This document shows positions 18,808 to 61,950 of a stretch of DNA of 64,000 bases, piece by piece. A program made the position numbers and the translations under genes. Position 1 is the stretch's first letter. Each line of letters begins with the position of its first letter. The DNA lies in the NCBI GenBank assembly GCA_041661645.1, contig JBAZUA010000002.1:19670-83669 (forward strand), in the 5' to 3' direction. This DNA is from Minisyncoccota bacterium. GTDB lineage: Bacteria > Patescibacteriota > Minisyncoccia > Phycocordibacterales > UBA6065. Below the pieces are notes generated by a model that did no database searches, had not been told where the DNA came from, and saw only the letters and a list, made by a program, of their open reading frames with translations.

Positions 18808-18812
18808 CCTGT

Positions 18813-19643: not shown

Positions 19644-19649
19644 TGATTT

Positions 19650-20075: not shown

Positions 20076-20642
20076 CTAATTATAGACGCACAGCCCGTCG
20101 ATAATAGGGTTTATCACTGAATAGACTTGCCAGATGATGAGACTCGCGCCGAGGCCGTAGGTAACGAGGGCGAGCCATGAGTGCCTGCCCTGGTTCGCTT
20201 CCTTGAAGACATTCACGATTCCTTTACGTCTCCACTCCTCTTTGGCGTGCTCGTCGCCAAACAGCTCCCTGAACATTGAGCGCCCGAACTGGGCTATTAC
20301 ATACAGCCAGCCGATGCCTATGAGTGTCGTTACGGAATCATTCACCGTCCGTGCGGCCTCGGGCAGGTCGCAGTAGGATTGGCCGATGTAGATTATCAGG
20401 CTGAGGCCGACGCTGGCGGCGAGGAGGGATCGGAAGACGGCGTAGCCCGCCATGAACCAGAGAATTGAGAAGAACGTCCCGAAGACGATCAGGAACACCG
20501 TGGGCCCGATGGCCGTGAAAAACGGCGTCGCGATCATGAAGGTCGAGACGGCCGCAACACACAGGACGAATACGGAGAACGTCTTCAGATTCTTCTTGTT
20601 CGCCCTTATCTTTTCTGACAGTAGGTTTTTTATGAATTTCAT
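20076..20642 (-). CDS. Hypothetical polytopic membrane protein (188 aa).
   Basis: ATG start and several hydrophobic helices. I recognise no motif. Confidence 0.45.
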   Translation of the reverse strand: MKFIKNLLSEKIRANKKNLKTFSVFVLCVAAVSTFMIATPFFTAIGPTVFLIVFGTFFSILWFMAGYAVFRSLLAASVGLSLIIYIGQSYCDLPEAARTVNDSVTTLIGIGWLYVIAQFGRSMFRELFGDEHAKEEWRRKGIVNVFKEANQGRHSWLALVTYGLGASLIIWQVYSVINPIIDGLCVYN

Positions 20643-20646
20643 GGGT

Positions 20647-21957: not shown

Positions 21958-21972
21958 GGTCTCTGAATTAAC

Positions 21973-22848: not shown

Positions 22849-22867
22849 GTGAAGCGGTGAGTTTATT

Positions 22868-24361: not shown

Positions 24362-24370
24362 AGGAGCGGG

Positions 24371-27300
24371 TTAATTTTCAAGCCACCCATTGTTTAGTCG
24401 CTGGCCTTTGGCGATTCGTCCGATAACTACTCCGTCCTTGATTGAATAAATAAATCCTGCGTGTCGAACTACTAGCCTTAGCATGGTCCTGATTTCCATG
24501 CAGATTGCCAAGTTGCTCCCATCGGGAGACATCTCTGCCGCTTCGATCTGACACTTTCCCTTACCCAAGATCTTTGACGCTGCTGTAATTGCAGAAGGCC
24601 ATATTTCGGATTTATCCGCTTTTCGGTTAGTTCCCTCAAGAAGCTTCACGAGTACTTCCAGGCGATTTTGTTCACCAGAGATGACGTATTCAAAATATAC
24701 AGAGACGCCTGTTAGGTGACAGGCCCTAAGATCATTCGGATGACACTTGCGCCCACTCCATGCACACGCCTTCGCTTCGGCAGGGGCGCAGAAATCACCA
24801 GTAACGGACCTCACCCCTTCTTCTTCGAGCATTCTAGCATCGGAAATACTGCTTGAGATAAAGAATTTCTTCAGTGCTTTCTTTCCAGATACGGCACTTT
24901 TCTCAAGGAGGTCAGGGAGCACCATCTTTCCCGATACCGTACAGCTTTCAAGCATTCCAGGCATTACAATCTTGCCAGTCACCTCACACTTTTCCGCCTC
25001 ACCTGGCAATAATGGCTTATTGGTCTCGGAGCAGAATGTAAACTCTTGCTTATGGCCTGATTTGCCCGATACGGCAGAGCGTAACTCCTCGTCAGTACGA
25101 TATTTCTTTCCTGAAACTTGGCTAACCGCCAATTCTGTCTTTAGAACATCCGTCAATGTAAACTGGCAACGTCCGAAGAATTCGGGTTCTGCCTGTTTGC
25201 CGCTCATGTCCGATTCTTTAAGAAGGGTGCTTACGATCATGTGTCCTGTGATGGCGGATTTTTTGACCTCATCTTCAAGCACTCGCTTACCACTTAAGTC
25301 GCAAGTAACCATATGATTAGAGAGAGCCAGTCTTCCACTGGTGTCTGACTTCGCAAGCAGGTGGTGTAATGCCTTGAGGCCGCTTATTTCGCACTTAGCC
25401 AGACAATCTTCAGGGACTGTTCTGCCGGTCTGGGAGCACTTTCCCATGATAGGCCCATCGACGATCTCATTTGCAGAAGGGATAATCGTAAGATTGCTTG
25501 TCTGGTTAGTATCAGAATCGATGCTGTATGAGACAGATACCTTCAACTTTCTTCGAGCCGCCCCTTCTAAGCCAACAAGGGAAAACTCAAGAGTGGGGGT
25601 AAAATCGCTCTCTATCTTTTTAATCTTTCGCTGATCATAGCCGGCGGAATTAATCTCGTCAGCCAATCTCTCCCTGTAGAATCTACAAAATTCCATTACT
25701 CCAGAATCAGAATTTGCCCTTTCAAGCAGATTCTTCACATTCACGCCGATCGACGAGGGTTCTTTTAACGGATTATTTATTGAATCAAAACCAAATCTCG
25801 TCTCGTCGCTAAAATGCTCGTTTGGAGAGCAGATCACCTCGATCAATCTTTCGTAGCTATCATGCGCAACAGTCACGCGCGCCCTCACGAGTGCGGAACC
25901 GCTAAAACAGCACGACGTGCTCTTCGTATCAAAACCTTTAAGCTGACCGCCAAATTTTTCAACCCAACTTTTAATCAATATGTCGGCCTGTTTGGACGAA
26001 TTCGTATCCGCATCCTTAACAAGGTGCAGTCCTTTGCCTGTTATTTTTCGTACCAGCCTTTCAAAAGAGGGCGTGCCAGGACCGTACAGTGTGCTAGTAA
26101 ATAGAGTTCCCGCACCTCCTGCATCCGTTTTATTTTCAAAACGGATCAACTCTCGCTTTCCGTCTAATTCCGATATATGAAGGTCAGAGGCTTTTTCGTG
26201 AGACAGCTTAGCACCTATGCTTTCGAGAGCCTTCAACGTGAAATCACGGGCCTCCATGGATTTAACGGAAGGTGGCAATTGCGGAACCTCGGGTCCCACA
26301 TCTCCTCTCATATCTCCGAGCAGTGAGTTTATATTTTTCTCTTCTTTCTCAAGCTGTACCTTGGCGTCTGATATGCTTTTAGCTGCCTTTCGAGTAGCTT
26401 CTTCGATGTCTTTACCGGCAAGAGAAGCCACCACAAGCTTTCTGATTTTTTCTTCGAAGCCATTCGTTCCGTCTTCCTCTTCATCGATTCCCGATGCTTC
26501 GAGCAACGCTTCAACATCACCAATAGCATGAGAGGCCATTTGTAGCTTCTCCATAAGGCGTCCAACGATATATTCCTCGAATGTCCCCTTGAGAACAATA
26601 TTAAAGATACAAACCTTTTCATGTTCTGAGGCAAGGCGTTGTATACGACCGATTCGCTGCTCTACGATCATTGGATTCCAAGGGAGATCGTAGTTTACAA
26701 GCACGTTCGCAGCCTGAAGGTTAACACCTTCGGAACCAGCTTCGGTAGAGATGATCGCGTGAATCTTTGGCGGTTTCGTTTTGAACTTGCTGATCGTATC
26801 CTGATTGCGGCCCGCTGAATCGCCGTTAATGACATCGCAGGTAACGCCTCGCTCTTCAAGAAAGGCTTGAATTGTCGTCTGGGTTTCTCGTCGGCAGGTA
26901 AAGATCACCATTCGCCAATCTTTTGGCTGTTCTGATTTGAGTTTGTCGACCAGTGCGCCCAAACCCTCTAGCTTTGACGTCACGAAACCGCGATCAACTA
27001 TCGCTTTAACCTGCTCGGCGAGTTCCTTAGGAACCGTTTCTTTTTTTGCCATAGCCTTTAGCTGTGCGGAAACGGCATGAGGGCTGCTTATGAGAGCCTG
27101 AAGTATAGAAATCTGGGCGAGACGGTTCAGTTTTTGAATTGACGCGCCAATGATCTTAATAAGCTCCTTTTCATGTTTGGTAGGTTCGACGGTATGGAGT
27201 TGAACCACTCGCTCTGGAAAGTGCAGATTGGCATCTGCACGTCTAACTCGAGACATATATCCGTAGACAATGGATCGGAACTCATCCTTCATCTCTGGGT

Positions 27301-28081
27301 TCAATTTGCGAGCCTGAGTGCGATCGTCATCGATAAACTTTCGACTGAATGCGCCTGCGTTTCCGAACGGATTTTCATGACCACGCGCCACGGTCAAAAG
27401 ATCTACCAATGAATAAAGATCCCACAGTCGATTTTGAATAGGGGTGGCCGTGAGCATGAGAACGTATTTGAAAACACGATCAGATAGAACTTTACGGAAT
27501 TTCTGGGCGACCTGGGGTGGTGGATCAACCCCGTAGAGGTTTCTGAGTTTATGAGCTTCGTCCAATATGAGCATGTCGAATCCGGCTTTCGAAAGATGGT
27601 CGAGATAGAGGCGTGCAGACTGGTATGTGGTGATCACGGCCCCGACTTCACCGGGCGGTTTTGCGTCCGCAAGGTCTTTTCCTGTCAGGATTACCGATGG
27701 AATCCCGAATTTAGTCTCTAGTTCCTCTTGCCACTGCTTGCCGAGGATCTTGGGACAAACTATCAGAATCTTTTCTAGGCGGCCGCGTGCGATCAATTCG
27801 CTTGCCACCAGACCTGCACTAATCGTCTTTCCAAGACCAACGTCGTCAGCCAAAAGGGTTACGGGAAGACGACGACAGAACGTGATGAGATTAGACACCT
27901 GATGGTTGTAGGGTTCAATTTTGTCCTTCCACCTGCTTGTTGATTTTAGATCCTCTCGTTTCTCAATAACAATAGGATCGATAAGATCCCATTCTAATGC
28001 GGCTCGATATAAATTGTATTGCTCTGGACTAGTAGAGTTCTCTAAGGGCTTGATTTGAATTGATGAAGTTGTTTTGTCCAT
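24371..28081 (-). CDS. SNF2-family (DEAH-box) helicase/translocase with a C-terminal array of short SGK-type repeats of about 650 aa (1236 aa in total).
   Basis: Walker A LADDVGLGKT, DEAHKLRN, TATPIQN, and helicase-C QRIGRIQR. The C-terminal half carries at least 12 tandem repeats of about 15 aa, of the type C/S-x-V/I-S/T-G-K-x-V/A-L/M-x3-L-x-K/E-S. Confidence 0.8.
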   Translation of the reverse strand: MDKTTSSIQIKPLENSTSPEQYNLYRAALEWDLIDPIVIEKREDLKSTSRWKDKIEPYNHQVSNLITFCRRLPVTLLADDVGLGKTISAGLVASELIARGRLEKILIVCPKILGKQWQEELETKFGIPSVILTGKDLADAKPPGEVGAVITTYQSARLYLDHLSKAGFDMLILDEAHKLRNLYGVDPPPQVAQKFRKVLSDRVFKYVLMLTATPIQNRLWDLYSLVDLLTVARGHENPFGNAGAFSRKFIDDDRTQARKLNPEMKDEFRSIVYGYMSRVRRADANLHFPERVVQLHTVEPTKHEKELIKIIGASIQKLNRLAQISILQALISSPHAVSAQLKAMAKKETVPKELAEQVKAIVDRGFVTSKLEGLGALVDKLKSEQPKDWRMVIFTCRRETQTTIQAFLEERGVTCDVINGDSAGRNQDTISKFKTKPPKIHAIISTEAGSEGVNLQAANVLVNYDLPWNPMIVEQRIGRIQRLASEHEKVCIFNIVLKGTFEEYIVGRLMEKLQMASHAIGDVEALLEASGIDEEEDGTNGFEEKIRKLVVASLAGKDIEEATRKAAKSISDAKVQLEKEEKNINSLLGDMRGDVGPEVPQLPPSVKSMEARDFTLKALESIGAKLSHEKASDLHISELDGKRELIRFENKTDAGGAGTLFTSTLYGPGTPSFERLVRKITGKGLHLVKDADTNSSKQADILIKSWVEKFGGQLKGFDTKSTSCCFSGSALVRARVTVAHDSYERLIEVICSPNEHFSDETRFGFDSINNPLKEPSSIGVNVKNLLERANSDSGVMEFCRFYRERLADEINSAGYDQRKIKKIESDFTPTLEFSLVGLEGAARRKLKVSVSYSIDSDTNQTSNLTIIPSANEIVDGPIMGKCSQTGRTVPEDCLAKCEISGLKALHHLLAKSDTSGRLALSNHMVTCDLSGKRVLEDEVKKSAITGHMIVSTLLKESDMSGKQAEPEFFGRCQFTLTDVLKTELAVSQVSGKKYRTDEELRSAVSGKSGHKQEFTFCSETNKPLLPGEAEKCEVTGKIVMPGMLESCTVSGKMVLPDLLEKSAVSGKKALKKFFISSSISDARMLEEEGVRSVTGDFCAPAEAKACAWSGRKCHPNDLRACHLTGVSVYFEYVISGEQNRLEVLVKLLEGTNRKADKSEIWPSAITAASKILGKGKCQIEAAEMSPDGSNLAICMEIRTMLRLVVRHAGFIYSIKDGVVIGRIAKGQRLNNGWLEN

Positions 28082-28397
28082 TTTCCGAGCAAGAATTCGT
28101 CAGAGGGGCTATTGGGGTACTTAAAATATAGCACTATATTCATTCTTTTTCTTCTGACGAAATTGCTGTATAATATTGTTAACACTAATTCCCTCGGCAG
28201 TACCAGGGGACCGAAAACCAGACAGGGCCGAGCACCCGACTTGGAGAAGCTGTTCAGAGACAGAAACATGCCGAGCGACAACCTCGCTAGGCGAAAGCTG
28301 ATCAGCGGAAAGCAGTACTTGAGCTGATGCGTCAAAATCTAGAAACCATTTCTGGATTTTTTGCCTGCCAGTTTATACAAGGTAACCACCTAAAAAT

Positions 28398-29711
28398 ATG
28401 AAGAAAAAAACAATGCTACATGCGGGTCTTTTCGAGCGCGACATAAAAATCGAGCTGGTGCCCGCGCGCCTCTTGAAGCCCGCCGCATACAACCCGCGAA
28501 AGTGGGATGATGCGGCCGCTACCCAGCTGACCAGGAGCATCAGGGAGTTCGGTCTCGTGGACCCCATCCTCGCGAACGGCTCTCCCGAAAGGAGGAACGT
28601 CGTCATCGGAGGGCATTTCCGCCTGAAGATCGCCAAGGATCTCGGGTACACGGAAGTTCCCGTGGTCTATCTGAATATTCCAGACGAGCGAAAGGAGAAA
28701 GAGCTGAACATCAGGCTAAACAAGAACACTGGCGATTGGGATTTCGACAAGCTCAAATCCTTCGACTTTGATTTTCTGGCAGATATCGGGTTCGATAAAA
28801 TTGAGCTATCGGATCTCTGGGACAAGGATTTGGAAACAGCGGATGACGAGTTCGATGTCGAAGGCGAGCTCAAGAAGATAAAAAAGCCCAAGACAAAGCT
28901 CGGCGACCTGATCATTCTCGGCAATCATAAGCTTGCGTGTGGCGATGCGACAGACCCCTCGGTTCTTATAAGGCTTTTCGGCAAGGAAAGGGCCTCGATG
29001 ATCTATTCCGACCCCGTATATAACATCAAGATCAATTACGGTGGCGGCATCAGTGGCAGGCAGAATTACGGCGGAAACGTAAACGATGACCGTTCGGAAT
29101 CAGAGTATAAGGAGTTTTTGAAGAAGAGCATGGTGAACGCCTTGTCGGTTACGAAGGAAAACGCCCATGTCTTTTACTGGTCGGACCAGAAGTATATCGG
29201 CCTCATTCAGGAACTCTACCGAGAGTTGAAGATCGAGAACAAGCGCGTCTGCCTGTGGATCAAGAACGCGCAAAACCCGACTCCGGGCGTCGCGTTCAAC
29301 AAGTGCTACGAACCGTGCACTTATGGCGTGAGGGGCAAACCGTACATATCGAAGAGCGTTCAAAATTTGAACGAGGTGATGAACAAGGAAATCACCACGG
29401 GAAACAATCTGCTCGCCGAGGCCTTGGATCATCTGGATCTGTGGATGGTGAAGCGACTGTCTGGAAAGGAATACGAGCACGCCACGTCGAAGCCTCCCGT
29501 GCTTCACCAGAAGGCCATTCGGCGTTGCACGAAATCGGGCGACATCATACTCGACAGCTTCTCCGGCTCGGCGAGCACGATGATCGCGGCAGAGCAGTTG
29601 AAAAGGAGGGTGTACGCGGTCGAGCTCGAACCAGCCTTCTGCGACCTCGCCATAAGGCGATACGAAAAGCTTACTGGCGTTAAGGCGAAGATCATCCATG
29701 AAGAAGCATAA
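28398..29711 (+). CDS. ParB-like nuclease domain fused to a beta-class N6A/N4C DNA methyltransferase.
   Basis: N-terminal ParB/Srx motif (VIGGHFRLKIAKDLG). Motif IV DPVYNI precedes motif I ILDSFSGSAST, which is the beta-class order. It lies immediately upstream of terminase genes, which is the usual phage arrangement. Confidence 0.75.
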   Translation: MKKKTMLHAGLFERDIKIELVPARLLKPAAYNPRKWDDAAATQLTRSIREFGLVDPILANGSPERRNVVIGGHFRLKIAKDLGYTEVPVVYLNIPDERKEKELNIRLNKNTGDWDFDKLKSFDFDFLADIGFDKIELSDLWDKDLETADDEFDVEGELKKIKKPKTKLGDLIILGNHKLACGDATDPSVLIRLFGKERASMIYSDPVYNIKINYGGGISGRQNYGGNVNDDRSESEYKEFLKKSMVNALSVTKENAHVFYWSDQKYIGLIQELYRELKIENKRVCLWIKNAQNPTPGVAFNKCYEPCTYGVRGKPYISKSVQNLNEVMNKEITTGNNLLAEALDHLDLWMVKRLSGKEYEHATSKPPVLHQKAIRRCTKSGDIILDSFSGSASTMIAAEQLKRRVYAVELEPAFCDLAIRRYEKLTGVKAKIIHEEA

Positions 29712-32429: not shown

Positions 32430-32652
32430 ACTAACTGTATTCGTACCGTGCCGACACGTTGCCGTGTGGGGTTAGGTAACTATGTTGTATTTACTGAATA
32501 TTGATTCAGTGTGTTCATACTATCGCTAAAATAAGGCTTTGTTAAGGTAGTTGCCAACAAGCGGAGGCTTAGCAAAGCTATCTGTCTCTGGCATTAATGG
32601 ATGTATGGAAATACAAGCCACCGCCCTCATGGGCAAATCGACCTTGGCCCCG

Positions 32653-33924
32653 ATGGCGAAAGTAAGGTATTGCCTCTACGCCCGCAAGTCCACCGAGCAG
32701 GAGGAGAAGCAGATCCTGTCGATTGACTCGCAGATCAAGGAGATGCTCTCGCTCGCGCAACGTGAGGGTCTCGAAATTGTCGATACTCGAAAGGAGTCAC
32801 ATTCCGCCAAGGCCTCGGGACAACGGCCTGTATTCAAGCAGTTGTTGGAGGACGTTAGATCAGGGAAGTTCGACGGCATACTCGTCTGGCACCCAGACAG
32901 GCTCTCCAGAAACGCGGGAGACCTCGGCTCGGTCGTCGATCTCATGGACGAGAAGCTCCTCGTCGAGATCCGTACCTACGGGCAGAAGTTCTCGAACAAC
33001 CCGAACGACAAGTTCCTCCTGATGATCCTCTGTTCGCAGGCGAAGCTCGAGAACGACAACAAGAGCGTCAACGTGAAGCGGGGCCTCAGGGCGAGGTGCG
33101 AGATGGGTCTGTGGCCCGCGCAGGCACCAACGGGATACGTCAACAGCTCGAACGTCAGCGAAATCTGCGTGGTCCACGTCGACCCCGTAAAGGCACCGAT
33201 CATCAAGCAGGTGTTCGAGAGGGTCGCCTACGAGGGCTGGGGAGGCAAGAGGGCCTATCTCTGGCTCAGGGACGAGCTGAGGTTCACCGCGAAGAGCGGA
33301 AAGCCCCTGACGCTGAGCAACGTGTTCATGATCCTCCACAACCACTTCTACTACGGCATATTCGAGTACCCTAAGAACAGCGGGAAATGGTATCAGGGAA
33401 AGCACACGCCCATCATCTCGAAAGACCTCTTCGATCAGGTACAGAAGCAACTCCACTGCCAGAGGAAGGTGAGGGACACGAACAAGGAGTTCGCGTTCAC
33501 AAAACTGATGTCATGCGGGCTGTGCGGATCAGGCATAACCGCACAGGATAAGTACAAAAACCTCGCGGACGGCACGGTGAAGAAGTACATCTACTACGGG
33601 TGCACGAAGATTCGGGACAAGGACTGCGGGAACGGATATCTGGAGGAGGCCGAGCTTATAAGGCAATTACTCGAACTGATGGACGACGTAGACTTAGATC
33701 AGTCTGGTCTGAGGAAAAAGCTTCAATCTGAAATCGAGAGGCACAAGAAGTTCAGCGTCGGGATTCTCGGTGGGAAGAAGGAGGATTATTCAGCAAAGGA
33801 TATGGATATCAGAAATTATGCAAAGTATCTTTTGAGGGAGGGCAATCTTTTTGAGAAAAGAGATCTGTTGGTTTGCTTGAAAAGCAAGATAGTTCTTAAA
33901 GAAAAGAAAGTTGCCTTGGGATGA
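32653..33924 (+). CDS. Large serine recombinase (integrase/resolvase family), intact.
   Basis: Catalytic region VRYCLYARKSTEQEEKQ, the recombinase domain, a Cys4 zinc ribbon (CGLCGSG...YYGCTKIRDKDCG) and a coiled-coil. The track ORF begins at a TTG at 32551. The first ATG directly preceding the catalytic domain is about 32653. Confidence 0.8.
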   Translation: MAKVRYCLYARKSTEQEEKQILSIDSQIKEMLSLAQREGLEIVDTRKESHSAKASGQRPVFKQLLEDVRSGKFDGILVWHPDRLSRNAGDLGSVVDLMDEKLLVEIRTYGQKFSNNPNDKFLLMILCSQAKLENDNKSVNVKRGLRARCEMGLWPAQAPTGYVNSSNVSEICVVHVDPVKAPIIKQVFERVAYEGWGGKRAYLWLRDELRFTAKSGKPLTLSNVFMILHNHFYYGIFEYPKNSGKWYQGKHTPIISKDLFDQVQKQLHCQRKVRDTNKEFAFTKLMSCGLCGSGITAQDKYKNLADGTVKKYIYYGCTKIRDKDCGNGYLEEAELIRQLLELMDDVDLDQSGLRKKLQSEIERHKKFSVGILGGKKEDYSAKDMDIRNYAKYLLREGNLFEKRDLLVCLKSKIVLKEKKVALG

Positions 33925-33947
33925 TATAAGTTTATGGCCATTGCCGA

Positions 33948-34988
33948 TTATTTACGGCCAGATGATTCATAAAATGGATTATATAGAACCATGGTCATAG
34001 TACGCATCATTGCCCGTTGTGTAGCCTGTATGTAGGCAACAGCTTTACTAAATTCACCGTCTTTTATCATCGTCCGGATCTCTTTTCTAATATTCGCAAA
34101 CTCTTCAGACTCGAGAGTTCTCTCTAAACTCTGCAGTACTTCTCGTTCGGTTAAATCAGGCATACTCATTATGCCCTCTGTTAATGAATTGGCGTGGCTG
34201 TTCGCTAAACATATGGTTGAAAGTACTTCATAAGTATTGTTTGTAAAAATATCTTTAATTCTGTCAACCTGATCCTTCTCGAGAAACCCTCCGGCAGGAA
34301 AGCCGAATGCAAATTTATCAAATAAAGGGAGGGGGTGAAACGACATTGGGAAATTAACTACAAAGCCCATTGCTGTTAATCGCAGGGCTTTAAGTAGAAA
34401 ATCTAGCCCTACTTTTAAGCCAACCTCACTGAATTCGGTCACGTTGCTATTTCTTAATGCCGTATGAGTGTGCGTTGCTCCCTGGGTATGCATGAATCCC
34501 GATAACTCCTTGTATAGAGATTGAATTTCGATGTTCCATTGCAATTTATCATTGAGAGTTTTGAATTCAATATTTTTTGCAGGCAGTGCTTTTAACATTT
34601 CGCTAATTGTGGGCGTGTTGGCCTTTCCATCTAGCCAGTTTTTAAAATTATCCCTGTCCTCATTTACAAAATGATACAAAGCAAAAACCTGTAATTCTAT
34701 AAAACTCCTTATTGATCGGAAACTGTCCTTATAGAATCCTGTTAGAAGCAACAATATGCCTGAATTTATATCTTGCTCGGCCTCAAAGAATACATGGTGC
34801 CATGGATGGATTGTGGTAAATTCTTCACCTGTACCGCCAAATATTGGAATGGCGAATAGAAGTTCGTGAGACCCGTTTAGAGCTCTGCGTATGTCATCCG
34901 ATATTTCTTTATGTGCTTCGAGCCACGCAGCACTTCGATCAGCTGTTTTGCCGAGTGAGGCTGCCTGTTTGAAATAATTATCTAGCAT
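33948..34988 (-). CDS. Hypothetical protein (about 346 aa), AT-rich.
   Basis: The track start at 35057 is a TTG. The internal ATG (MLDNYFKQ) leaves a 28-nt gap to the upstream gene. I recognise no motif. Confidence 0.45.
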   Translation of the reverse strand: MLDNYFKQAASLGKTADRSAAWLEAHKEISDDIRRALNGSHELLFAIPIFGGTGEEFTTIHPWHHVFFEAEQDINSGILLLLTGFYKDSFRSIRSFIELQVFALYHFVNEDRDNFKNWLDGKANTPTISEMLKALPAKNIEFKTLNDKLQWNIEIQSLYKELSGFMHTQGATHTHTALRNSNVTEFSEVGLKVGLDFLLKALRLTAMGFVVNFPMSFHPLPLFDKFAFGFPAGGFLEKDQVDRIKDIFTNNTYEVLSTICLANSHANSLTEGIMSMPDLTEREVLQSLERTLESEEFANIRKEIRTMIKDGEFSKAVAYIQATQRAMMRTMTMVLYNPFYESSGRK

Positions 34989-35016
34989 TTCATTTATTGT
35001 CTTATTTGAAATAACC

Positions 35017-36207
35017 CTAAACTTTGATGTTGGGAAGGATTGATTCCGTAATATCAAAGGTCATGTCAATTTTTGATGAACCTGCGAGCGAAATTGATTC
35101 AGAGGCTAGTCTTAATAAGAACTTCAATGAAGCAATATCTGCCAAGACCTTAGCTTTGCTTGCTTCCCATATTGGATTTTGTGAGTTTGCGCCGCCGCTA
35201 TGCCGACCTGCTAAGGATAATGAATATTGAACCGTACGGGAAATAAAATCTTCTCTCGCTATATCTTCTTGAGATTTAATACTATTGCCAAACTGTGAAG
35301 CGGTATAGCCATCTGGAACTTGTAGTGACGAATAAGTGTTCTTCAGGGTTATTTTTTTACTAGAGTGATTTTTTATCAAAAAATGGACCGTGATTGTGAA
35401 GTTATCCATTACGCCATCATTAGTTCTTGAGCCGGGATTTAGTTCGAGTTTTTCAAATTCAATCGCAAGGCCCACAGAATCATCATTCTTGGTCGGTGTC
35501 TCTTTTAAAATTCCTCTCGTTGAGAGCACCTTTCTTCCATCTGCAAAAGTAATAGTAGTTTCAATTAGAGGAACTATTTCTGTAGGTTCCTGCCGACCAT
35601 CTTCTAATCTTATTGACCCGTTCTCTCTATCGACAATCACATGCGCTTTCTGGGTGTCGCCGTTTCTTCTACCCAAAATAAAGTGATGGTCATCGCCTTG
35701 TGTTCTTGATTCCAAAAACACATCATCTGTTTTAAATCTATTTTTAATTGTTTTACCGCGCTCGGTAGTATTCTGGTCACTTTTAAGTAACAGCCTCAGG
35801 CTCCTTTTTTCACGTAGTTCTAATTCTAACAGAGCTCGATTGTGGAGACTGGTTTTTATATCAGGATTGTCATTCCTGCGTACGATTTCCTCCAACTCTT
35901 CAAAAGTTCTTTTTGTTAAGTCAGTAAAGTCTTGTTGTTTATCTTTGGATAAAAATTTATCTATTCTATCTGGTGTTGATGAAAAGCCTTCGTGGTAAAT
36001 ATCACCACCTTCATTTTCAATTAAAAGAAATCCCTCGGATTTTAATTGATGTAAAAAACCTTTAATATGCTGAATTTCTTCTGGCTGAATATTGTTATGA
36101 TCGTGTGCGATCATAAGTTCGCAGACTCGGATTGTTTTTATGTACCCACCACTATGCGTCTTAAAGAAAGACATTATTTCGTTTTTTGATGGATATATGA
36201 GATTCAT
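35017..36207 (-). CDS. Hypothetical protein (396 aa), AT-rich, co-operonic with 33948-34988.
   Basis: ATG start. I recognise no motif. It is the first gene inside the island next to the tRNA-proximal att repeat. Confidence 0.5.
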   Translation of the reverse strand: MNLIYPSKNEIMSFFKTHSGGYIKTIRVCELMIAHDHNNIQPEEIQHIKGFLHQLKSEGFLLIENEGGDIYHEGFSSTPDRIDKFLSKDKQQDFTDLTKRTFEELEEIVRRNDNPDIKTSLHNRALLELELREKRSLRLLLKSDQNTTERGKTIKNRFKTDDVFLESRTQGDDHHFILGRRNGDTQKAHVIVDRENGSIRLEDGRQEPTEIVPLIETTITFADGRKVLSTRGILKETPTKNDDSVGLAIEFEKLELNPGSRTNDGVMDNFTITVHFLIKNHSSKKITLKNTYSSLQVPDGYTASQFGNSIKSQEDIAREDFISRTVQYSLSLAGRHSGGANSQNPIWEASKAKVLADIASLKFLLRLASESISLAGSSKIDMTFDITESILPNIKV

Positions 36208-53765: not shown

Positions 53766-54146
53766 ATGGACATGGAACTCTCAAAAAAGAACATCGGAAC
53801 AGGCGTGGCGCTTTTCTCCCTCGTCATCGCCTTCATCGACCCTCTGCTCGGACTGTTCTTCCTCCTGCTTGCCGCGTTCGTCTTCCTCTACTGGCATCGA
53901 CACGAGGAGCGCGGCAATCTCGGCCACTTCGCCGAGGTGCATTCGGCACAGAAGCTCGAGAATCTCGGTCGCGTCCTCGAATACGCCCGCTCGGCAAAGG
54001 GCGAGGTCGCTAATGACGACGTCGAGAGGCTTCTCGGTGTCTCAAACTCAACCGCCGAGCGATATCTGAACGATCTCGAGAAGCGCGGGCACTTGGTCCA
54101 GGTCGGTACGACGGGCAGGGGAGTGACGTACCGATTGGCGGAATAG
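53766..54146 (+). CDS. Membrane protein with a C-terminal winged-helix DNA-binding domain.
   Basis: An N-terminal transmembrane pair. The C-terminal ERYLNDLEKRGHLVQVGTTGRGVTYRL is wHTH-like. Confidence 0.4.
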   Translation: MDMELSKKNIGTGVALFSLVIAFIDPLLGLFFLLLAAFVFLYWHRHEERGNLGHFAEVHSAQKLENLGRVLEYARSAKGEVANDDVERLLGVSNSTAERYLNDLEKRGHLVQVGTTGRGVTYRLAE

Positions 54147-54161: not shown

Positions 54162-54986
54162 ATGGAAAAGATACATGAGGGCTCAATCGAGGCGATCGCC
54201 AACTACCAGGGCAATGATTCGCTTCTTTTATTCGAGCGCGTGAGCAATCCGGTCATACGGGAGCAGATAATAGGCCTCTTGATCGAGGGCGAGCGATCGA
54301 GAGACGGCTCACCTGTCGAGGTATTGGAGGAAGAAAGCCCCGGCGTTTTCAAGAAAGACGAAGCCGGCGAGATCGTCGTGAAGACGATCCCGTACAGAGC
54401 CCGCTCTCGGGAGGAGATTGAGTCGGATTTGGATGAGGCCATTCAGAGGGAGGTTTCCGTCACCAACATATCTTTTAACGATGACCCGAATATGCAATCC
54501 TCGAGTTCCGAGATTGAGATGAGGGCGCTCGCCCCATGGAACGGCAAGCCGTTCAACGAGAAGCAGATGAGCAACATCGAAGCCCATGAAAAGGGTCACA
54601 ATCTGAGGCCGTATCGCGCGGATTTCTTCAAGACGCATTTCCAGGGTGCGTTTTCATTTGATGACAAGGTGATCACCGATCGGGACATCGAGATGTATCG
54701 AAAGGTGCTGAATGAGGACGAGAGGAACGAGCCTGACGAGAAGATAAGGGAGATCATCCTCGACTATCTCTTTTATCCCATGGAGATTGCCGAGAGGATG
54801 TCCCAGCTCAAGAATTATTTCGGCATGTCTGCTGACGACACCTTCACTCGGGAGCATTTGCACTATGCCGTAGAGCATTATGTGGCCGACACGGGCGTTG
54901 ATAACGGTATGGGCATGTTCTTTCGGGCGATAAAGCCCGAGACGGAGGACGAGTTCATAAGGCTCATCAATTGTTCGGGCATATAG
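54162..54986 (+). CDS. Hypothetical protein (274 aa).
   Basis: ATG start. It contains an HEKGH (HExxH-like) pentapeptide. I cannot assign a family. Confidence 0.4.
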   Translation: MEKIHEGSIEAIANYQGNDSLLLFERVSNPVIREQIIGLLIEGERSRDGSPVEVLEEESPGVFKKDEAGEIVVKTIPYRARSREEIESDLDEAIQREVSVTNISFNDDPNMQSSSSEIEMRALAPWNGKPFNEKQMSNIEAHEKGHNLRPYRADFFKTHFQGAFSFDDKVITDRDIEMYRKVLNEDERNEPDEKIREIILDYLFYPMEIAERMSQLKNYFGMSADDTFTREHLHYAVEHYVADTGVDNGMGMFFRAIKPETEDEFIRLINCSGI

Positions 54987-55042: not shown

Positions 55043-56764
55043 ATGACTAATGAAAACTCTCAGTCGGCCGGCGCCGCGCCTCTCTCTTTCGATACTCTCG
55101 GCATAAGCCCGCGCATACTGGACGTCCTCCATCGCAACAAGTTCACCGTCCCGACGCCCATTCAGCACAAGGTGATTCCTTTCGGCGTGCAGGGCAAGGA
55201 CATCATCGGCATCGCCCAGACGGGAACCGGCAAGACCTTGGCCTTCGGCATCCCCATGATCGAGCGATTGCTCGCCAATCGAAATGCCCGCGGCCTCGTC
55301 GTCCTGCCGACTCGCGAGCTTGCCATTCAGGTCGAGGAGACCATACACCGCATCGGCTCGACCCTGGGCATCAGCTCGGTTGTCCTCATCGGCGGCGAGT
55401 CCGTCACCAAACAGATGCGCCTCCTCAAGCTTAATCCGACCGTCATGATCGCCACCCCGGGGCGACTGCTCGACCACGTCAAGCAGGGCAATGCCCGCCT
55501 CGACAATGTGTCCATCGTCGTTCTCGACGAGGCTGACCATATGTTCGATATCGGCTTTGCCCCTCAGGTACGCGACATCATGAGGCGCGTCTCCAAGGTT
55601 CGCCAGACCCTTCTGTTCTCGGCCACCATGCCCGCCGAGATCGCGACCCTCGCCATGGAGCACATGAAGCTGCCCTTGCGCATCGAGACCGCCGTTCAGG
55701 GAACCTCGGCCACCAATGTCGAGCAGGAGATCATCGTCGTCAACCGACATGCCAAGTTCCCGCTGCTCTCGAGCCTTCTCGCCAAAGAGGACCGAACCCT
55801 TCCCGTCATCGTCTTCTCCCGCACCAAGCACGGAGCCAAGGATATCGCCCTCGGCCTCAGGAACCTCGGCATAACGGCCGTCGAGATTCACGGAAACAGG
55901 TCCCTGGGCCAGCGCAAGGAAGCCCTCGAGGGATTCAAGCAGCACAGGTATCAGGTGCTCGTGGCGACCGACATCGCGGCCCGCGGCATCGACGTTAAAG
56001 ATATTGGGCTCGTCGTGAACTACGACCTTCCCGAGCAGACCGAGGATTACGTCCACCGCATTGGACGAACTGGTCGCGCGGGCAAGTCGGGTAGGGCGGT
56101 GTCGTTCGCCACTCCCGATCAGAAGTTTGATATCGTCGCCATCGAGCGACTCATTAAGAGGCCTATTGCCACGACTCATCACAAGGGCGCGGCTTTGCCC
56201 GCGACTGCGGTTGGCGCGCCGATAGGTGGCGGACGTCAGGGTGGCGCCGTCGGCGGTTACGGCCCTCGCAAGTTCGACAGGCGAGCACCTGTGGGTGCTT
56301 TCAAGGTTCACACCAATCAGCCCTTCAAGGGCGGCGCTCCCAAGGGATATGTTCCACGGTCTGCCGCGGCACGACCAGTGGGCGCACATGCATGGCAGAG
56401 GCCTGCGGCAACGGGTGGACGACCTTCATACGGTCCTTCTCGCGGCGCGTCTACATCATACGGCCCAAAGCGCGCCTTCAATTCGGGACGACCTTCGTTC
56501 GGCTCAAGGCCGACTTCGGGTGGAGCTCGTCCGGCTTTCGGCGTGGCACGACCTGTATCGGCTCCAAAGCCTTTCCGTACCGACCCTTCCTTCGTCGCCG
56601 GCTTCAAGGGCGGATATCAGGGAAGCAATCCTCGCCCGGCGGGCAGCGATTTCAAGGCGGCACGAACGGGCGGGGCATCTCGCCCAAGCGGCCCATACAA
56701 GGGAAATGGCCCACGAACCGGCGGCGCGCCTCGCCCGGGTGGATCTTTCAGGAAGAGTCGATAG
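55043..56764 (+). CDS. DEAD-box RNA helicase with a Gly/Arg/Pro-rich C-terminal tail.
   Basis: Q-motif, AQTGTGKT, DEAD, SAT, and HRIGRTGRAG. The C-terminal tail of about 190 aa is low-complexity. Confidence 0.85.
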   Translation: MTNENSQSAGAAPLSFDTLGISPRILDVLHRNKFTVPTPIQHKVIPFGVQGKDIIGIAQTGTGKTLAFGIPMIERLLANRNARGLVVLPTRELAIQVEETIHRIGSTLGISSVVLIGGESVTKQMRLLKLNPTVMIATPGRLLDHVKQGNARLDNVSIVVLDEADHMFDIGFAPQVRDIMRRVSKVRQTLLFSATMPAEIATLAMEHMKLPLRIETAVQGTSATNVEQEIIVVNRHAKFPLLSSLLAKEDRTLPVIVFSRTKHGAKDIALGLRNLGITAVEIHGNRSLGQRKEALEGFKQHRYQVLVATDIAARGIDVKDIGLVVNYDLPEQTEDYVHRIGRTGRAGKSGRAVSFATPDQKFDIVAIERLIKRPIATTHHKGAALPATAVGAPIGGGRQGGAVGGYGPRKFDRRAPVGAFKVHTNQPFKGGAPKGYVPRSAAARPVGAHAWQRPAATGGRPSYGPSRGASTSYGPKRAFNSGRPSFGSRPTSGGARPAFGVARPVSAPKPFRTDPSFVAGFKGGYQGSNPRPAGSDFKAARTGGASRPSGPYKGNGPRTGGAPRPGGSFRKSR

Positions 56765-56785
56765 TTTTATATTCAAAGACAAAAC

Positions 56786-56817
56786 GAAAAACACCTCAAT
56801 CGATTGAGGTGTTTTTC
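56786..56817 (+). terminator. Rho-independent terminator.
   Basis: acacctcaat-cg-attgaggtgt followed by a T-run. The same 10-bp stem occurs at 63833. Confidence 0.65.
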
Positions 56818-56933
56818 GTGGCTCACCATAAGGCTATTTTTGTATGTCTTGGACTAAATAAAATAAAGATAAAGAAAAAATAAAATTTTGTGCTAGAGTT
56901 TGCCATAGAAGATTCTCAAGGAATTCTAAAGAA

Positions 56934-57380
56934 ATGATAAGGAAACGCATAAAAACCCCTGTCGCCACTTCGGTCGCCGTATCAAACGTGATGAAGGCGA
57001 ACAAGTCTACGAATACTAAGCCCGAGCTTCTTATGCGTAGGCATCTATCATTGATCTCGGTTCGGGGGTATCGACTGCATTGGAAGAAGGCTCCGGGTAA
57101 GCCAGACATTGCGTTTCCAGGGCGAAAAATAGCTGTTGTCGTAAATGGTTGTTTCTGGCATGGATGCAGAAAATGTGGGGCGAAGATGCCCAAGACAAAT
57201 AAGGCATTCTGGTCTCAAAAAATTCTAGGCAATCGTAGGAGGGACGAAAGGAATCTGAAAACTTTGAGAGGACTAGGTTGGAAGGTCTTCGTTGTCTGGG
57301 AGCATGATTTAAAGAAGGGCAAAGGGGTTGCGGTCGCTAATCAAATCAGGGTGTTTGTTGATAAATTTGCAGCAAAATGA
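56934..57380 (+). CDS. vsr: Very-short-patch-repair (Vsr) endonuclease.
   Basis: TKPELLMRRHL...GYRLHWKKAPGKPDIAFPGRKIAVVVNGCFWHGC...NKAFWSQKILGNRRRDE...GWKVFVVWEHDL matches Vsr along its whole length. Confidence 0.8.
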   Translation: MIRKRIKTPVATSVAVSNVMKANKSTNTKPELLMRRHLSLISVRGYRLHWKKAPGKPDIAFPGRKIAVVVNGCFWHGCRKCGAKMPKTNKAFWSQKILGNRRRDERNLKTLRGLGWKVFVVWEHDLKKGKGVAVANQIRVFVDKFAAK

Positions 57381-58333
57381 AAAAGATAAACAGAAATGCT
57401 TTCAATGAAAAATTGATCCATAGGTACCTCTTTGAGCGATATTATTTTGCTCCGAAAGATATACGTAACAAACTTCTCCCTGCTGAATATCATAAGGATT
57501 CAATCAATTTGATTGCCCCGGAAGATTCTGGGGAAAAGGAGGGTTATCGTGCAGATCTAACGATCTTTTTCAAAGATAAAGAACAAGGTGTCCCTGTCGA
57601 AGTTAAATGGTTTGGAAAGGGTCTCACTAAACAAAATCAGATAGACTATCTTTTAAAGCATAATGGCTTCATTGTTTCTTTTGGGGATGTCGAGGAGGGT
57701 TTGCCTGTTAAACATATCGTCATAGACCCGAACGATTTTTTGGAGTGGACTCAGTTTAATATTTCGAAATTAACTAGGGAGTCACTGATCTATCAAGCCG
57801 GGATAAAAACTCTTGGTTCTAGTCAGCACTGGGTTGTATTTTTAAGGGGGACGTCTCATGAAAATTTCTTTAAAATGTTGAGACATTCAAAGAGGTCACC
57901 TTTTTGGGCATATAAACAAAATGAGCACGCGCTTAGAAACATATTGAATATTCAGCAGGGAGATAGTGTCTTGTTTATCTTGGGCTATGCCAGCGAGGGG
58001 ATGGGTATGAGTAATAATCCAAATCTCAAGTTACAGATTCGAGCCTGGTATGAGGTTATAGTTAAAGATCCCTATTACATGATATTGAAAGGGGATAAAG
58101 GTACTTTCTTTGAATCGGGTGATATTCCTGTAAATAAGAGGAGGTGGCCTCATTTTGTCGATTTTGAGATCAGGGACTCATTTGAGTGGCCTTCACGGGT
58201 TGAATTTGGGAAGCGTGGCGAATACGCAAGTGCTTTTGCTGAGTCCGTTAATTATGGTTCGGGAGCTCCCGCACCACTTTTGCGAGCTCAGTACGAACAT
58301 CTGGCTGATTCTCTCAGGAAAATTTCTAAATAA
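57377..58333 (+). CDS. Putative modification-dependent nuclease: an N-terminal PD-(D/E)xK-like core plus a C-terminal EVE/PUA-like domain.
   Basis: YRADLTIFFKDKEQGVPVEVKW is the D...E-x-K arrangement. The C-terminal HWVVFLRG...FWAYKQNEHALRNI...GDSVLFILG resembles an EVE/ASCH PUA-like fold. The gene is AT-rich and overlaps vsr by 4 nt. Confidence 0.35.
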   Translation: MKKINRNAFNEKLIHRYLFERYYFAPKDIRNKLLPAEYHKDSINLIAPEDSGEKEGYRADLTIFFKDKEQGVPVEVKWFGKGLTKQNQIDYLLKHNGFIVSFGDVEEGLPVKHIVIDPNDFLEWTQFNISKLTRESLIYQAGIKTLGSSQHWVVFLRGTSHENFFKMLRHSKRSPFWAYKQNEHALRNILNIQQGDSVLFILGYASEGMGMSNNPNLKLQIRAWYEVIVKDPYYMILKGDKGTFFESGDIPVNKRRWPHFVDFEIRDSFEWPSRVEFGKRGEYASAFAESVNYGSGAPAPLLRAQYEHLADSLRKISK

Positions 58334-58337
58334 AAAT

Positions 58338-59033
58338 ATGAAAGAAATTTTTTCACATGCAGAGATGTCGGTGAGAGAAGGTTTCCCGATTCAAAAGGGT
58401 ATGAATTTTCGTCCCAGAGAAAAGGGATACTCGATTTTCTTGATGTCCGTGAGGGAGGATAGTCCCTATAACGATAATTTTGATGAGGACCTACAGGTAT
58501 TGATTTATGAAGGTGAAGATATAACCCGGGCAGAACAAGACCATCCAAAGGAATTTGATCAGCCCTTATTTACCAAGTTAGGGGGGCTCACAAGTAACGG
58601 TAAGTTTTTTCAGGCTGCGGAGGCTTATAAATTTAAGAGAAAAAATGTCCCGGAAATTATAAAGGTCTACGAAAAGATAAACACCAATATTTGGGCAGAC
58701 AAGGGCTTGTTTAGTCTTGTTGATGCTCGTTTCGAATACAGTGAGGATGAAAAAAGGAAGGTCTTTAAATTTGTTCTTAAGCTGCAATCTGTAGAAGATG
58801 CAAAAACTCTTCAAGAAAAAGAACAGTTTGAATTTTCTCGTCGTATTCCAACGGATGTAAAGAGATTGGTGTGGAAACGTGATGGGGGTAAATGTGTTAC
58901 CTGCGGTGCCAATTCAGATCTCCATTTCGATCACGTCATACCCTTTTCGAAAGGTGGCAGTAGCAATGACTCTAAAAATGTTCAGATTTTGTGTTCTCGA
59001 CACAACTTAGAAAAATCAGCTCGTATTCAGTAG
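58338..59033 (+). CDS. HNH endonuclease with an N-terminal domain of about 170 aa that may be SRA-like (not confirmed).
   Basis: C-terminal HNH: GGKCVTCGANSDLHFDHVIPFSKGGSSNDSKNVQILCSRHNLEKS. In the N-terminus, GFPIQKGMNFRPREKGY...SPYNDNFDEDLQVLIYEGED is loosely SRA-like. This architecture is known in SRA-HNH type IV enzymes. Confidence 0.55.
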   Translation: MKEIFSHAEMSVREGFPIQKGMNFRPREKGYSIFLMSVREDSPYNDNFDEDLQVLIYEGEDITRAEQDHPKEFDQPLFTKLGGLTSNGKFFQAAEAYKFKRKNVPEIIKVYEKINTNIWADKGLFSLVDARFEYSEDEKRKVFKFVLKLQSVEDAKTLQEKEQFEFSRRIPTDVKRLVWKRDGGKCVTCGANSDLHFDHVIPFSKGGSSNDSKNVQILCSRHNLEKSARIQ

Positions 59034-59049
59034 GCCCTTCTCATTTTAA

Positions 59050-59289
59050 ATGTACCACCTCTACATCCTCCTCTGTTCCGACGACACCCTCTACACCGGC
59101 ATCACGACCGATCTCGCGCGTCGCGTGGAGGAGCATAACTCGTCCTCCCTCGGGGCCAAGTACACACGGGGAAGGCGGCCGGTGAGGCTCGTCTATTCGA
59201 AGGTCTTTCCCGACAGGTCATCCGCCTCGGTCGAGGAGGCGCGGGTCAAGAGGCTCTCTAGGGATGAAAAGCGTGCCCTGGTCCTTTAG
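59050..59289 (+). CDS. GIY-YIG nuclease-superfamily small protein (YhbQ/UPF0213-like).
   Basis: YHLYILLCSDDTLYTGITTDLARRVEEHN is the GIY-YIG core. Confidence 0.7.
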   Translation: MYHLYILLCSDDTLYTGITTDLARRVEEHNSSSLGAKYTRGRRPVRLVYSKVFPDRSSASVEEARVKRLSRDEKRALVL

Positions 59290-59677
59290 GATCGTGCGCA
59301 GGAGGGTGCGCCGCGCTCTGAGGCGTTCATCGCGCGCGGCGCATGCAAAGTACCTCGAGCACAAGGAGGCCGCCCGAGCCCTCGTCCACGCCCGCCTCGC
59401 TCACTTCAATCAGTTCTACGGATTCACCTATGGATCGGTCGCCATCCGCGACCAGAGAAGCCGCTGGGGAAGCTGCTCGTCCGCGGGCAATCTCAACTTC
59501 AACTATCGCATCGCCCTGTTGCCGCCGCATCTCTCCGACTACGTCATCGTCCACGAGCTCTGCCACAGGGGAGAGTTCAACCACTCGCAGAGGTTCTGGG
59601 ACCTGGTGGCGAGGGTGATGCCGGACTATCTGGCTTTACGTGCCGAATTGAAGGCCATCCGGCTTTCCTCAATCTGA
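59264..59677 (+). CDS. YgjP/DUF45 (SprT-like) zinc metallohydrolase family protein.
   Basis: WGSCSSAGNLNFNYRIALLPPHLSDYVIVHELCH, with HExxH in VHELCH. The track start overlaps the GIY-YIG gene by 26 nt and the true start is uncertain. Confidence 0.55.
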   Translation: MKSVPWSFRIVRRRVRRALRRSSRAAHAKYLEHKEAARALVHARLAHFNQFYGFTYGSVAIRDQRSRWGSCSSAGNLNFNYRIALLPPHLSDYVIVHELCHRGEFNHSQRFWDLVARVMPDYLALRAELKAIRLSSI

Positions 59678-61350: not shown

Positions 61351-61950
61351 ATGAAAAATAATGAGATCAAAAAACTCAAGGCGGGAATATTCATAGATGG
61401 CTCTAATTTGCTCTGGTCCATGAAGTCAAAGAACTTTAAGGGCGAAAAGACCAATTACGACATCTGTTTCGAGAAGTTGTTCGCGTTTCTGCACGAGACG
61501 TATTCGCCTGTCTTTTGTAATTACTATGTGTGCGAGGATAAGGGTGCTGTTTCGGAGCCTTATCTGACGAGAGCCCGCTCCCAAGGGAAATTCTTCGATA
61601 AGTTGGGTACTTTCGGATATAGCGTCATAAGGAAAAATCTTAAACATGTAGGCGATGTAACAAAGTGTGATACAGATGTGGAAATCGTGATGGACATGCA
61701 TCGTCGAGAAAAAGATATTGATTTAATTGTGCTGTTTTCGGGAGATTCTGATTTCAGATCGGCGCTCCAACATTTTCATTCCCAAGGGAAGTTTATTCAC
61801 GTGTATAGCTTTGCGAATTTTTTGTCATGGGAGCTCAGAGAGTTTACAAGCAATAGCCTGAATTGCGGATACACTCTTTTGGGTGAAATGAGGGGTAGAA
61901 TTGAGAGGGTGAGGGTAATTCCCGGAACCGTTGACATCGGAAAAGTCTGA
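61351..61950 (+). CDS. NYN/LabA-like PIN-fold nuclease domain protein.
   Basis: GIFIDGSNL at the N-terminus and a later acidic cluster (DTDVEIVMD...LFSGDSDF). Confidence 0.6.
   Translation: MKNNEIKKLKAGIFIDGSNLLWSMKSKNFKGEKTNYDICFEKLFAFLHETYSPVFCNYYVCEDKGAVSEPYLTRARSQGKFFDKLGTFGYSVIRKNLKHVGDVTKCDTDVEIVMDMHRREKDIDLIVLFSGDSDFRSALQHFHSQGKFIHVYSFANFLSWELREFTSNSLNCGYTLLGEMRGRIERVRVIPGTVDIGKV

Follow-up and report, generated by a model that had tools for sequence, protein, structure and literature searches.

A conserved vsr gene bordering a probable defence hot spot and a two-gene cargo of predicted type IV restriction enzymes in a Minisyncoccota bacterium

Gene content and base composition of the locus

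The DNA analysed here, called the window throughout, is a stretch of 64,000 nucleotides from a Minisyncoccota bacterium (GenBank assembly GCA_041661645.1, contig JBAZUA010000002.1, positions 19,670 to 83,669 of the forward strand). At 56934-59289 it carries four consecutive plus-strand open reading frames (ORFs): a vsr gene (ORF1), two nuclease genes named ORF2 and ORF3, and a small GIY-YIG gene (ORF4). A preliminary description made from the letters alone had taken the four for one modification-dependent restriction cluster with a deamination-repair partner. The explanation which we consider probable is narrower: 57377-59033 is a cargo of two genes, gained by horizontal transfer, in a hot spot, and each of the two genes encodes an independent single-chain type IV enzyme with a different reader of modified bases. 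The features of the locus are the following.

55043-56764, plus strand: DEAD-box helicase gene, GC 0.62, GC3 0.72; core gene of the left flank, outside the islet
56784-56819, no strand: palindromic hairpin, terminator-like in both directions; perfect 36-nt palindrome after the helicase gene
56934-57380, plus strand: vsr (ORF1), 148 amino acids; very short patch repair T:G mismatch endonuclease by profile
57377-58333, plus strand: ORF2, 318 amino acids
57377-57796, plus strand: PD-(D/E)xK nuclease domain of ORF2, residues ~1-140
57809-58333, plus strand: EVE/YTH-like (PUA-superfamily) domain of ORF2, predicted modified-base reader, residues ~145-318
58338-59033, plus strand: ORF3, 231 amino acids, with an ATG start within a longer TTG-start ORF
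58338-58790, plus strand: SRA domain of ORF3, predicted reader of flipped 5-methylcytosine (5mC) or 5-hydroxymethylcytosine (5hmC), residues ~1-150
58845-59033, plus strand: HNH nuclease domain of ORF3, residues ~170-231
59050-59289, plus strand: GIY-YIG gene (ORF4), 79 amino acids; Pfam GIY-YIG 2.2e-16

The coordinates bear out the consecutive arrangement and the overlap of vsr and ORF2, which is 4 nt (ATGA); the spacer between ORF2 and ORF3 is also 4 nt. For ORF3 the ATG start was chosen which agrees with the N-terminus of its family, MK[DE]I. The terminator predicted upstream of vsr is a perfect palindromic hairpin, recovered with a 16-bp stem in one search and with 18-nt arms of 100% complementarity in another. 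It is assigned to the conserved flank because the intergenic DNA around it is 74-81% identical to that of a related locus, L086, described below.

The G+C content (GC) of the window drops sharply from ~0.60 to ~0.40 over ~56800-59040. GC and GC at third codon positions (GC3) are 0.40 and 0.39 for ORF2 and 0.40 and 0.38 for ORF3, with vsr intermediate at 0.46 and 0.48. The values of the GIY-YIG gene (0.61 and 0.83), of the YgjP-like gene which follows it (0.61 and 0.80) and of the DEAD-box helicase gene are all high. The claim that all four genes are AT-rich thus stands for vsr, ORF2 and ORF3 and fails for the GIY-YIG gene, so that the compositional island has three genes at most. Since its composition matches the GC-rich flanks, the GIY-YIG gene, whose family call was correct, is a right-flank gene with host-like composition and not a member of the island, and no GIY-YIG homologue was found beside the homologues of ORF2 or ORF3. 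With a GC3 of 0.38-0.39 against 0.72-0.83 in the flanks, ORF2 and ORF3 are foreign, and by comparison with related genomes these two genes are the exchanged cargo. The YgjP-like metallopeptidase gene (59264-59677) shares 26 nt with the GIY-YIG gene and is short, its 137 amino acids spanning positions 108-206 of the 207 of the Pfam model.

No C5 methyltransferase is present in the 64-kb window, as the preliminary description had said of the neighbourhood: the best tblastn hit with M.HhaI has E=1.6 and no C5 motif pattern is found. Candidate N6/N4 methyltransferases of the window (DPPY motif matches) all lie in non-coding frames and were dropped.

Conserved left flank and variable cargo in related genomes

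Loci retrieved from databases are referred to by L numbers. In L086/L087, L088 and L089 a helix-turn-helix (HTH) gene, a DEAD-box helicase gene and vsr follow each other in the same order as in the window. The helicases of L086-L089 share 80-87% amino acid identity with that of the window and occupy the same position, and the HTH proteins of the relatives are 53-71% identical to the product of window 53766-54146. The nearest Vsr homologues, 70-76% identical, are the positional orthologues of L086-L090; in L090, a locus without the helicase, vsr is preceded by an HTH and a NYN gene. The position of vsr is therefore kept in at least four related genomes despite different cargo, which is composed as follows.

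Window, after vsr: ORF2 and ORF3
L086/L087, after vsr: a 160-amino acid gene, a McrB_N + NucS_C nuclease gene (Pfam 4e-10 and 5e-13; PADLOC PDC-S02 1.6e-47), further genes and a type I HsdM gene
L088, after vsr: a convergent DUF2075-type helicase gene
L090, after vsr: a NERD + DUF2075 helicase gene (PADLOC PDC-S41 1e-171)

In L086/L087 the GC likewise falls, to ~0.41, immediately 3' of vsr. Nucleotide homology between the window and L086 covers the 3' end of the helicase gene and the hairpin region and continues in vsr as far as ~57310. The constant HTH-helicase-vsr order, followed by different genes in the relatives, makes vsr the probable resident left border of a hot spot for defence genes in this Paceibacterota lineage. 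The cargo was presumably exchanged by homologous recombination in the flanks.

The 160-amino acid gene (L086 6388-6870 and its L087 equivalent) begins 3 nt after vsr, and nothing related to it was found in Pfam, PADLOC, the PDB sequences or by hhalign against A1 and A2. Genes of 805 and 188 amino acids lie on the minus strand of the same AT-rich cargo (L086 8345-11332 and the L087 equivalents); neither has a relative in Pfam or PADLOC.

The Vsr endonuclease

ORF1 scores 113.9 bits against TIGR00632 (cut-off 97.85), 70.4 bits against Pfam PF03852 (1.1e-19; cut-off 27) and 2.4e-17 against the PADLOC Vsr model. ORF1 preserves both the catalytic Asp motif (PGKPDIAF) and the Cys/His cluster (GCFWHGCRKC), the relevant positions being D58 in PGKPD58IAF and C73, H76, C78 and C81 in GC73FWH76GC78RKC81. 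In the E. coli enzyme we take the catalytic Asp and His to be D51 and H69 and the zinc ligands to be C66, H71 and C73. By profile and motif ORF1 thus appears to be a bona fide, standard Vsr, like the product of E. coli dcm-vsr in passing the TIGR00632 cut-off and in keeping the catalytic and zinc motifs. It would thus be a repair nickase acting 5' of the T in T:G mismatches.

Among Vsr orthologues the ratio of nonsynonymous to synonymous divergence (omega) is 0.10-0.19 in the three orthologue pairs for which synonymous divergence (dS) could be estimated, and the orthologues in L086 and L089 have a host-like GC3 of 0.76. The low omega indicates purifying selection, and together with the host-like composition it marks vsr as a resident which the lineage has maintained on the left border of a variable slot. 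The ratio was not computable for the window's own vsr, as its dS is saturated against the orthologues. This AT-shifted allele with its saturated synonymous sites lies next to a helicase gene with a dS of 0.49, which suggests that the recombination tracts bringing the cargo reached into the window vsr.

Two orthologues differ at the catalytic Asp, which is replaced by Ala in L088 (6001-6468; PGRPAIAF) and by Glu in L090 (6001-6465; PGKPEIDF). These sequences suggest that Vsr activity was lost or changed in some lineages, and in view of the Ala of L088 vsr is not indispensable everywhere.

A cognate C5 methyltransferase for Vsr was found neither in the 64-kb window nor in loci L086-L093. A vsr gene unlinked to its methyltransferase has a precedent in VsrA/ScmA of Caulobacter (PMC12907096). 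As such unlinked pairs exist and as our search covered only ~64 kb of the genome, the Vsr of the window probably serves an unlinked C5 methyltransferase and has only a positional link to the cargo.

ORF3, a predicted SRA-HNH enzyme

The C-terminus of ORF3 matches the Pfam HNH (6e-7) and HNH_5 (9e-7) models, with C186, C189, H196, D198, H199, N214, C219 and N223 invariant in the family. In the structural model the first 150 residues form an SRA domain, with a predicted local distance difference test score (pLDDT) of 82.8. ORF3 itself stays below detection by Pfam SAD_SRA, which 14 out of 28 sampled family members match at a lenient threshold of E<=1 (best 8.5e-6). Residues Y44, D46, Y57 and G59, in the motifs SPY44xD46 and Y57-E-G59, are invariant in 28 homologues and a D74-Q75 pair is conserved; these may be the counterparts of the UHRF1 residues which sandwich and hydrogen-bond the flipped 5-methylcytosine, among them two stacking Tyr and an Asp (Y466/D469/Y478). 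With an N-terminal SRA (PUA-superfamily) fold and a C-terminal HNH domain with zinc ligands, ORF3 is predicted from its model to be an SRA-HNH enzyme of the TagI/ScoA3IV kind, as had been proposed from its sequence. Compared with the known SRA-HNH restriction endonucleases (ScoA3IV/Sco5333 and TagI; PDB 6ghs) it is shorter, 231 amino acids against the 285 residues of the TagI chain, and its sequence identity to TagI is only 14%. Enzymes of this kind bind and cleave 5mC and 5hmC DNA; they restrict T4gt and show toxicity in Dcm+ hosts (PMC6765204).

ORF2, a predicted PD-(D/E)xK nuclease with an EVE/YTH-like domain

The sequence of the ORF2 product recurs unchanged in an NCBI entry named 'MAG: hypothetical protein WC763_02045 [Candidatus Paceibacterota bacterium]' (MAG, metagenome-assembled genome). 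It has no match in Pfam, NCBIfam, PADLOC, a phmmer search of PDB or a PDB profile search, and tblastn of phage and plasmid collections was equally negative. The family is well conserved, with 126 homologues of 38-84% identity, every one of them annotated 'hypothetical'. Most belong to Patescibacteria and a few to marine Gammaproteobacteria (Shewanella, Photobacterium and Pseudoalteromonas). With 162 matches among 1.84 billion representatives the family is rare, it is not recognised by profile libraries, and it is new here; SRA-HNH proteins outnumber it roughly tenfold (1579 against 126 matches).

The AlphaFold2 model of ORF2, built with 35 homologues, is confident (pLDDT 88.8, predicted template modelling score 0.85). 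Structural matches of the nuclease domain are SfsA (6.9), NucS (6.6), VRR-NUC, AgeI and Cfr10I, which share the PD-(D/E)xK core. Strands 2 and 3 of the N-terminal domain carry the invariant D60...E75-V-K77, which places the nuclease at the N-terminus and the reader at the C-terminus. Against DNA binders the EVE-like fold scores 10.1 for VcaM4I, 8.8 for THYN1 with 5mC DNA and 8.6 for McrB-N with m5C DNA, and the C-terminal residues W152, W177, D196 and Y233 are retained even in relatives at ~20% identity. Searched with Pfam EVE (PF01878), the window ORF2 gave no match, its homologues one in 35 at E=0.032 and its distant relatives none in 42, and Foldseek of the model against BFVD returned single-domain matches only. 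The proposal of a PD-(D/E)xK nuclease joined to an EVE/PUA-like reader is therefore supported by the predicted fold, while the sequence profile is negative.

Bell et al. 2020 predicted EVE-PD(D/E)XK and EVE-HNH proteins as type IV classes, the former with the EVE domain in either position (PMC7641849). ORF2 has the PD-(D/E)xK core of the first class and, by its predicted fold, the EVE/YTH-like PUA domain, and its family resembles the class in lacking a cognate methyltransferase and in its defence-type neighbourhoods. It differs from the EVE-nuclease classes in that its reader is missed by the Pfam EVE model and its family is rare and unannotated. From the EVE-HNH enzymes (VcaM4I/TspA15I; PDB 6yex) it is distinguished by a nuclease which is of the PD-(D/E)xK type and N-terminal. 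The domain order is that of PvuRts1I and AbaSI, in which an N-terminal PD-(D/E)xK/Vsr-like nuclease is followed by a C-terminal SRA-like 5hmC reader: ORF2 is likewise a single-chain nuclease with a C-terminal PUA-superfamily reader, and its reader fold is different.

Genomic context of the ORF2 and ORF3 families

The census of ORF2 homologues comprised ~60 full-length loci, ~49 of them distinct besides the window. The homologues are mostly solitary. Clustering of all neighbour ORFs of these loci gave no recurrent partner, the largest non-trivial cluster being a Cas4-like PD-(D/E)xK protein in 4 loci. An SRA-HNH gene adjoins the ORF2 homologue in two of the ~49 other loci, the L001/L002/L028 group and L008, both times in the reverse order with HNH first. 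The pairing is missing beside the closest homologues of either gene: the ORF2 homologue P0004 (78% identity) sits among housekeeping genes, P0002 (84% identity) has unrelated neighbours of unassigned family, and the SRA-HNH homologues P0124 and P0125 (73-76%) have no ORF2 neighbour. The idea of one system is not borne out by this distribution. Three tight ORF2/SRA-HNH adjacencies in ~50 loci nevertheless exceed random expectation; they fit defence-island co-location or an occasional advantage of the pairing, rather than an obligate two-gene system. Neighbours of 226 amino acids in L085 and L091 were considered as candidate partners and proved to be unrelated.

A C5 methyltransferase adjoins the ORF2 homologue in one of the ~49 distinct loci (L009) and an SPPY-motif methyltransferase in another (L070); the others have none. 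L009, from a Liptonbacteria MAG, carries at 5980-9008, in this order, the ORF2 homologue, the C5 methyltransferase (PF00145 2e-73), a methyl-directed type IIM nuclease of 175 amino acids (PADLOC mREase_II 1e-60) and Vsr, so that ORF2-type genes are able to live beside a C5 methyltransferase. A methylase beside two presumed methyl-dependent nucleases makes this locus an 'm5C island'. In L070 (128-1568) the SPPY-motif DNA methyltransferase (275 amino acids) and a winged-HTH-HNH nuclease (201 amino acids), probably a type II restriction-modification (R-M) pair, lie just upstream of the ORF2 homologue. In Shewanella polaris CP041036.1 (L003 8001-9023) a solitary homologue of 42% identity is inserted in a lambda-like prophage, with a pRha gene on one side and the lysis/terminase genes on the other, a position typical of prophage-borne defence morons. 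All three contexts are those of defence islands.

In L001/L002 the reversed pair is located directly upstream of a 179-amino acid YgjP-like gene (L001 9028-9567; 45% identity). COG1451 proteins are associated with R-M loci, and the YgjP-like neighbour shared with the window could reflect coincidence, a shared insertion site or such an R-M-linked association.

Other features of the window

Long tracts at 13000-29000 have a reduced GC of 0.43-0.50, against ~0.58-0.61 elsewhere, and the contig is thus a compositional mosaic far outside the locus itself. A large serine recombinase gene (Resolvase + Recombinase + Zn_ribbon) on the plus strand at 32551-33924 adjoins very AT-rich DNA (GC 0.38-0.40 at 34-36 kb) with two minus-strand ORFs of unassigned family (33948-35057 and 35017-36207), and 32551-36207 is probably another mobile islet. 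About 2 kb downstream of the locus a second AT-rich patch (GC 0.42) contains a NYN-domain gene (61351-61950; Pfam 1.8e-17), whose product is 32% identical to that of the NYN gene just upstream of the L090 Vsr orthologue. Between the HTH gene and the helicase gene there is an ORF of 274 amino acids (54162-54986) with a slightly lower GC of 0.52 and no family match; it is missing in L086 and L089, where the helicase gene directly follows the HTH gene.

Discussion

The locus is best described as a fairly ordinary defence islet in which one nuclease comes from a rare, unannotated family. The proposal of a single operon and system with a deamination-repair partner is not supported, as the GIY-YIG gene is flank-like and Vsr precedes different cargo in relatives. 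Several points tell against the reading of ORF2 and ORF3 as independent type IV enzymes exchanged in a hot spot. The close packing of the genes, and the fact that ORF2 and SRA-HNH genes became neighbours independently three times (in the window, the L001 group and L008), would allow functional coupling. Modification-dependent cutting by ORF2 and ORF3 is a prediction from folds and motifs, and the reader of ORF2 is EVE-like by its predicted fold alone, sequence searches being negative; as EVE/YTH folds also bind modified RNA, its target could be RNA. The right flank (GIY-YIG/YgjP) is absent from the loci retrieved from relatives, among which no empty site was found. Finally, the ORF2 homologue next to the C5 methyltransferase of L009 fits only if ORF2 spares that methylated site.

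The first alternative is that Vsr, ORF2 and ORF3, with or without the GIY-YIG protein, form one co-evolved system, in which Vsr would repair deamination tied to modified cytosine or would act as an extra nickase with the readers. It draws on the 4-nt overlap and 4-nt spacer, on the Vsr of relatives located 3 nt before cargo which includes a nuclease of modified-cytosine type (McrB_N + NucS_C), on the grouping in L009 of an ORF2 homologue, a C5 methyltransferase, a methyl-directed restriction endonuclease and Vsr, and on reported proteins in which a PUA-superfamily reader is fused to a Vsr-type nuclease domain (PMC6765204). However, L009 is the only one of the ~49 other distinct loci with Vsr within 2 kb of the ORF2 homologue, and Vsr adjoins none of the SRA-HNH loci examined. 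The cargo after vsr may also be helicase-type and reader-less (L088, L090), the Vsr orthologues of L086 and L089 are host-like in composition where their cargo is not, and the L088 Vsr is still at the slot with Ala for its catalytic Asp. If the composition of the GIY-YIG gene and the precedent of unlinked vsr genes are added, such a system is improbable, and a functional link of Vsr to ORF2 and ORF3 is unproven.

In a variant of this idea, to which we likewise assign a low probability, vsr would be the fixed part of a module whose interchangeable nucleases, dependent on modified cytosine, are expressed from the Vsr nickase and work with it, and ORF2 would stand for a new family of type IV enzymes whose reader is EVE/YTH-like. 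The nucleases meant would be the PD-(D/E)xK-EVE-like, SRA-HNH, McrB_N-NucS_C and methyl-directed type IIM proteins. Vsr could provide a second-strand or mismatch-directed nick, or could limit self-damage at deaminated 5mC. Such a module would divide between separate proteins what the reader-Vsr fusions noted by Lutz et al. combine in one.

It is also unlikely that Vsr is a roleless relic of a lost Dcm-endonuclease-Vsr module, left in a decaying mosaic after type IV genes replaced the methyltransferase and nuclease. The lack of a C5 methyltransferase in 64 kb would agree with this, as would the methyltransferase-endonuclease-Vsr order adjoining the ORF2 homologue of L009, the AT-shifted and dS-saturated window allele and the loss of the catalytic Asp in L088. 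Against it stand the purifying selection among the orthologues, the intact catalytic and zinc motifs of the window copy and the same position in at least four related genomes with differing cargo, while the methyltransferase search spans just ~64 kb of the genome.

Lastly, we give little credence to ORF2 as an RNA-directed or toxin-like nuclease, in which the EVE/YTH-like domain would bind modified RNA (tRNA, rRNA or phage) and abortive infection would be the task of the PD-(D/E)xK domain. EVE domains classically bind RNA, the fast-evolving ones occur in toxin-antitoxin contexts (PMC7641849) and the homologue of L009 is next to a C5 DNA methylase with no obvious conflict. Against this, DNA binders of the same fold score similarly, most PD-(D/E)xK nucleases cut DNA, the homologues have no recurring antitoxin-like neighbour and the neighbourhoods are R-M and type IV.

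Returning to two independent type IV enzymes, the evidence consists of folds, motifs, composition, synteny and gene turnover; from these we infer modification dependence, the kind of base read and any co-transcription from vsr. ORF3 would flip a modified cytosine (5mC or 5hmC) into its SRA pocket (Y44/D46/Y57) and then cut nearby DNA through a zinc-stabilised HNH site (H199, N214, N223), in the manner of TagI and ScoA3IV. ORF2 would read a modified base with its C-terminal EVE/YTH-like domain (W152, W177, D196, Y233), a fold common to 5mC/5hmC readers and to N6-methyladenine readers, and would cut with its N-terminal PD-(D/E)xK site (D60, E75, K77). Each would act independently of a cognate methyltransferase. 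Together they may widen the range of modified foreign DNA which is restricted, such as phage and methylase-bearing elements, and a phage may less easily evade two readers with two nuclease chemistries by one inhibitor or one modification. If Vsr serves an unlinked host methyltransferase, both type IV enzymes would have to spare the methylated motif of the host.

The SRA-HNH family, EVE-nuclease fusions as a predicted class, PUA-nuclease gene clusters and defence hot spots are all established, and PUA-nuclease ORFs are known to seldom adjoin methyltransferases (PMC6765204). As in known hot spots, i.e. immigration control regions such as E. coli mcrBC-hsd-mrr, a conserved left flank is here combined with alternative AT-rich cargo. 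The differences are that the left flank alone was seen to be conserved and that no tRNA gene, integrase or convincing flanking direct repeats were found marking the slot. The window vsr resembles Caulobacter vsrA in being unlinked to a methyltransferase gene (PMC12907096); it differs from Dcm-Vsr modules in having no C5 methyltransferase in 64 kb, in lying at the edge of a variable slot and in overlapping a type IV gene by 4 nt. What is new, besides the ORF2 family, is that a lineage of the candidate phyla radiation (CPR) keeps vsr at the edge of a defence slot with fast turnover.

These findings leave the current view of type IV restriction standing. With ORF2 a rare family of ~160 representative sequences gains a name and a testable function; if active, it would be a compact nuclease-reader, possibly with a useful specificity for epigenetic mapping, like MspJI, AbaSI and TagI. 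CPR bacteria, despite their tiny genomes, would keep, next to a conserved vsr, a defence hot spot whose cargo changes rapidly, and this conserved gene hints at 5mC methylation in the lineage.

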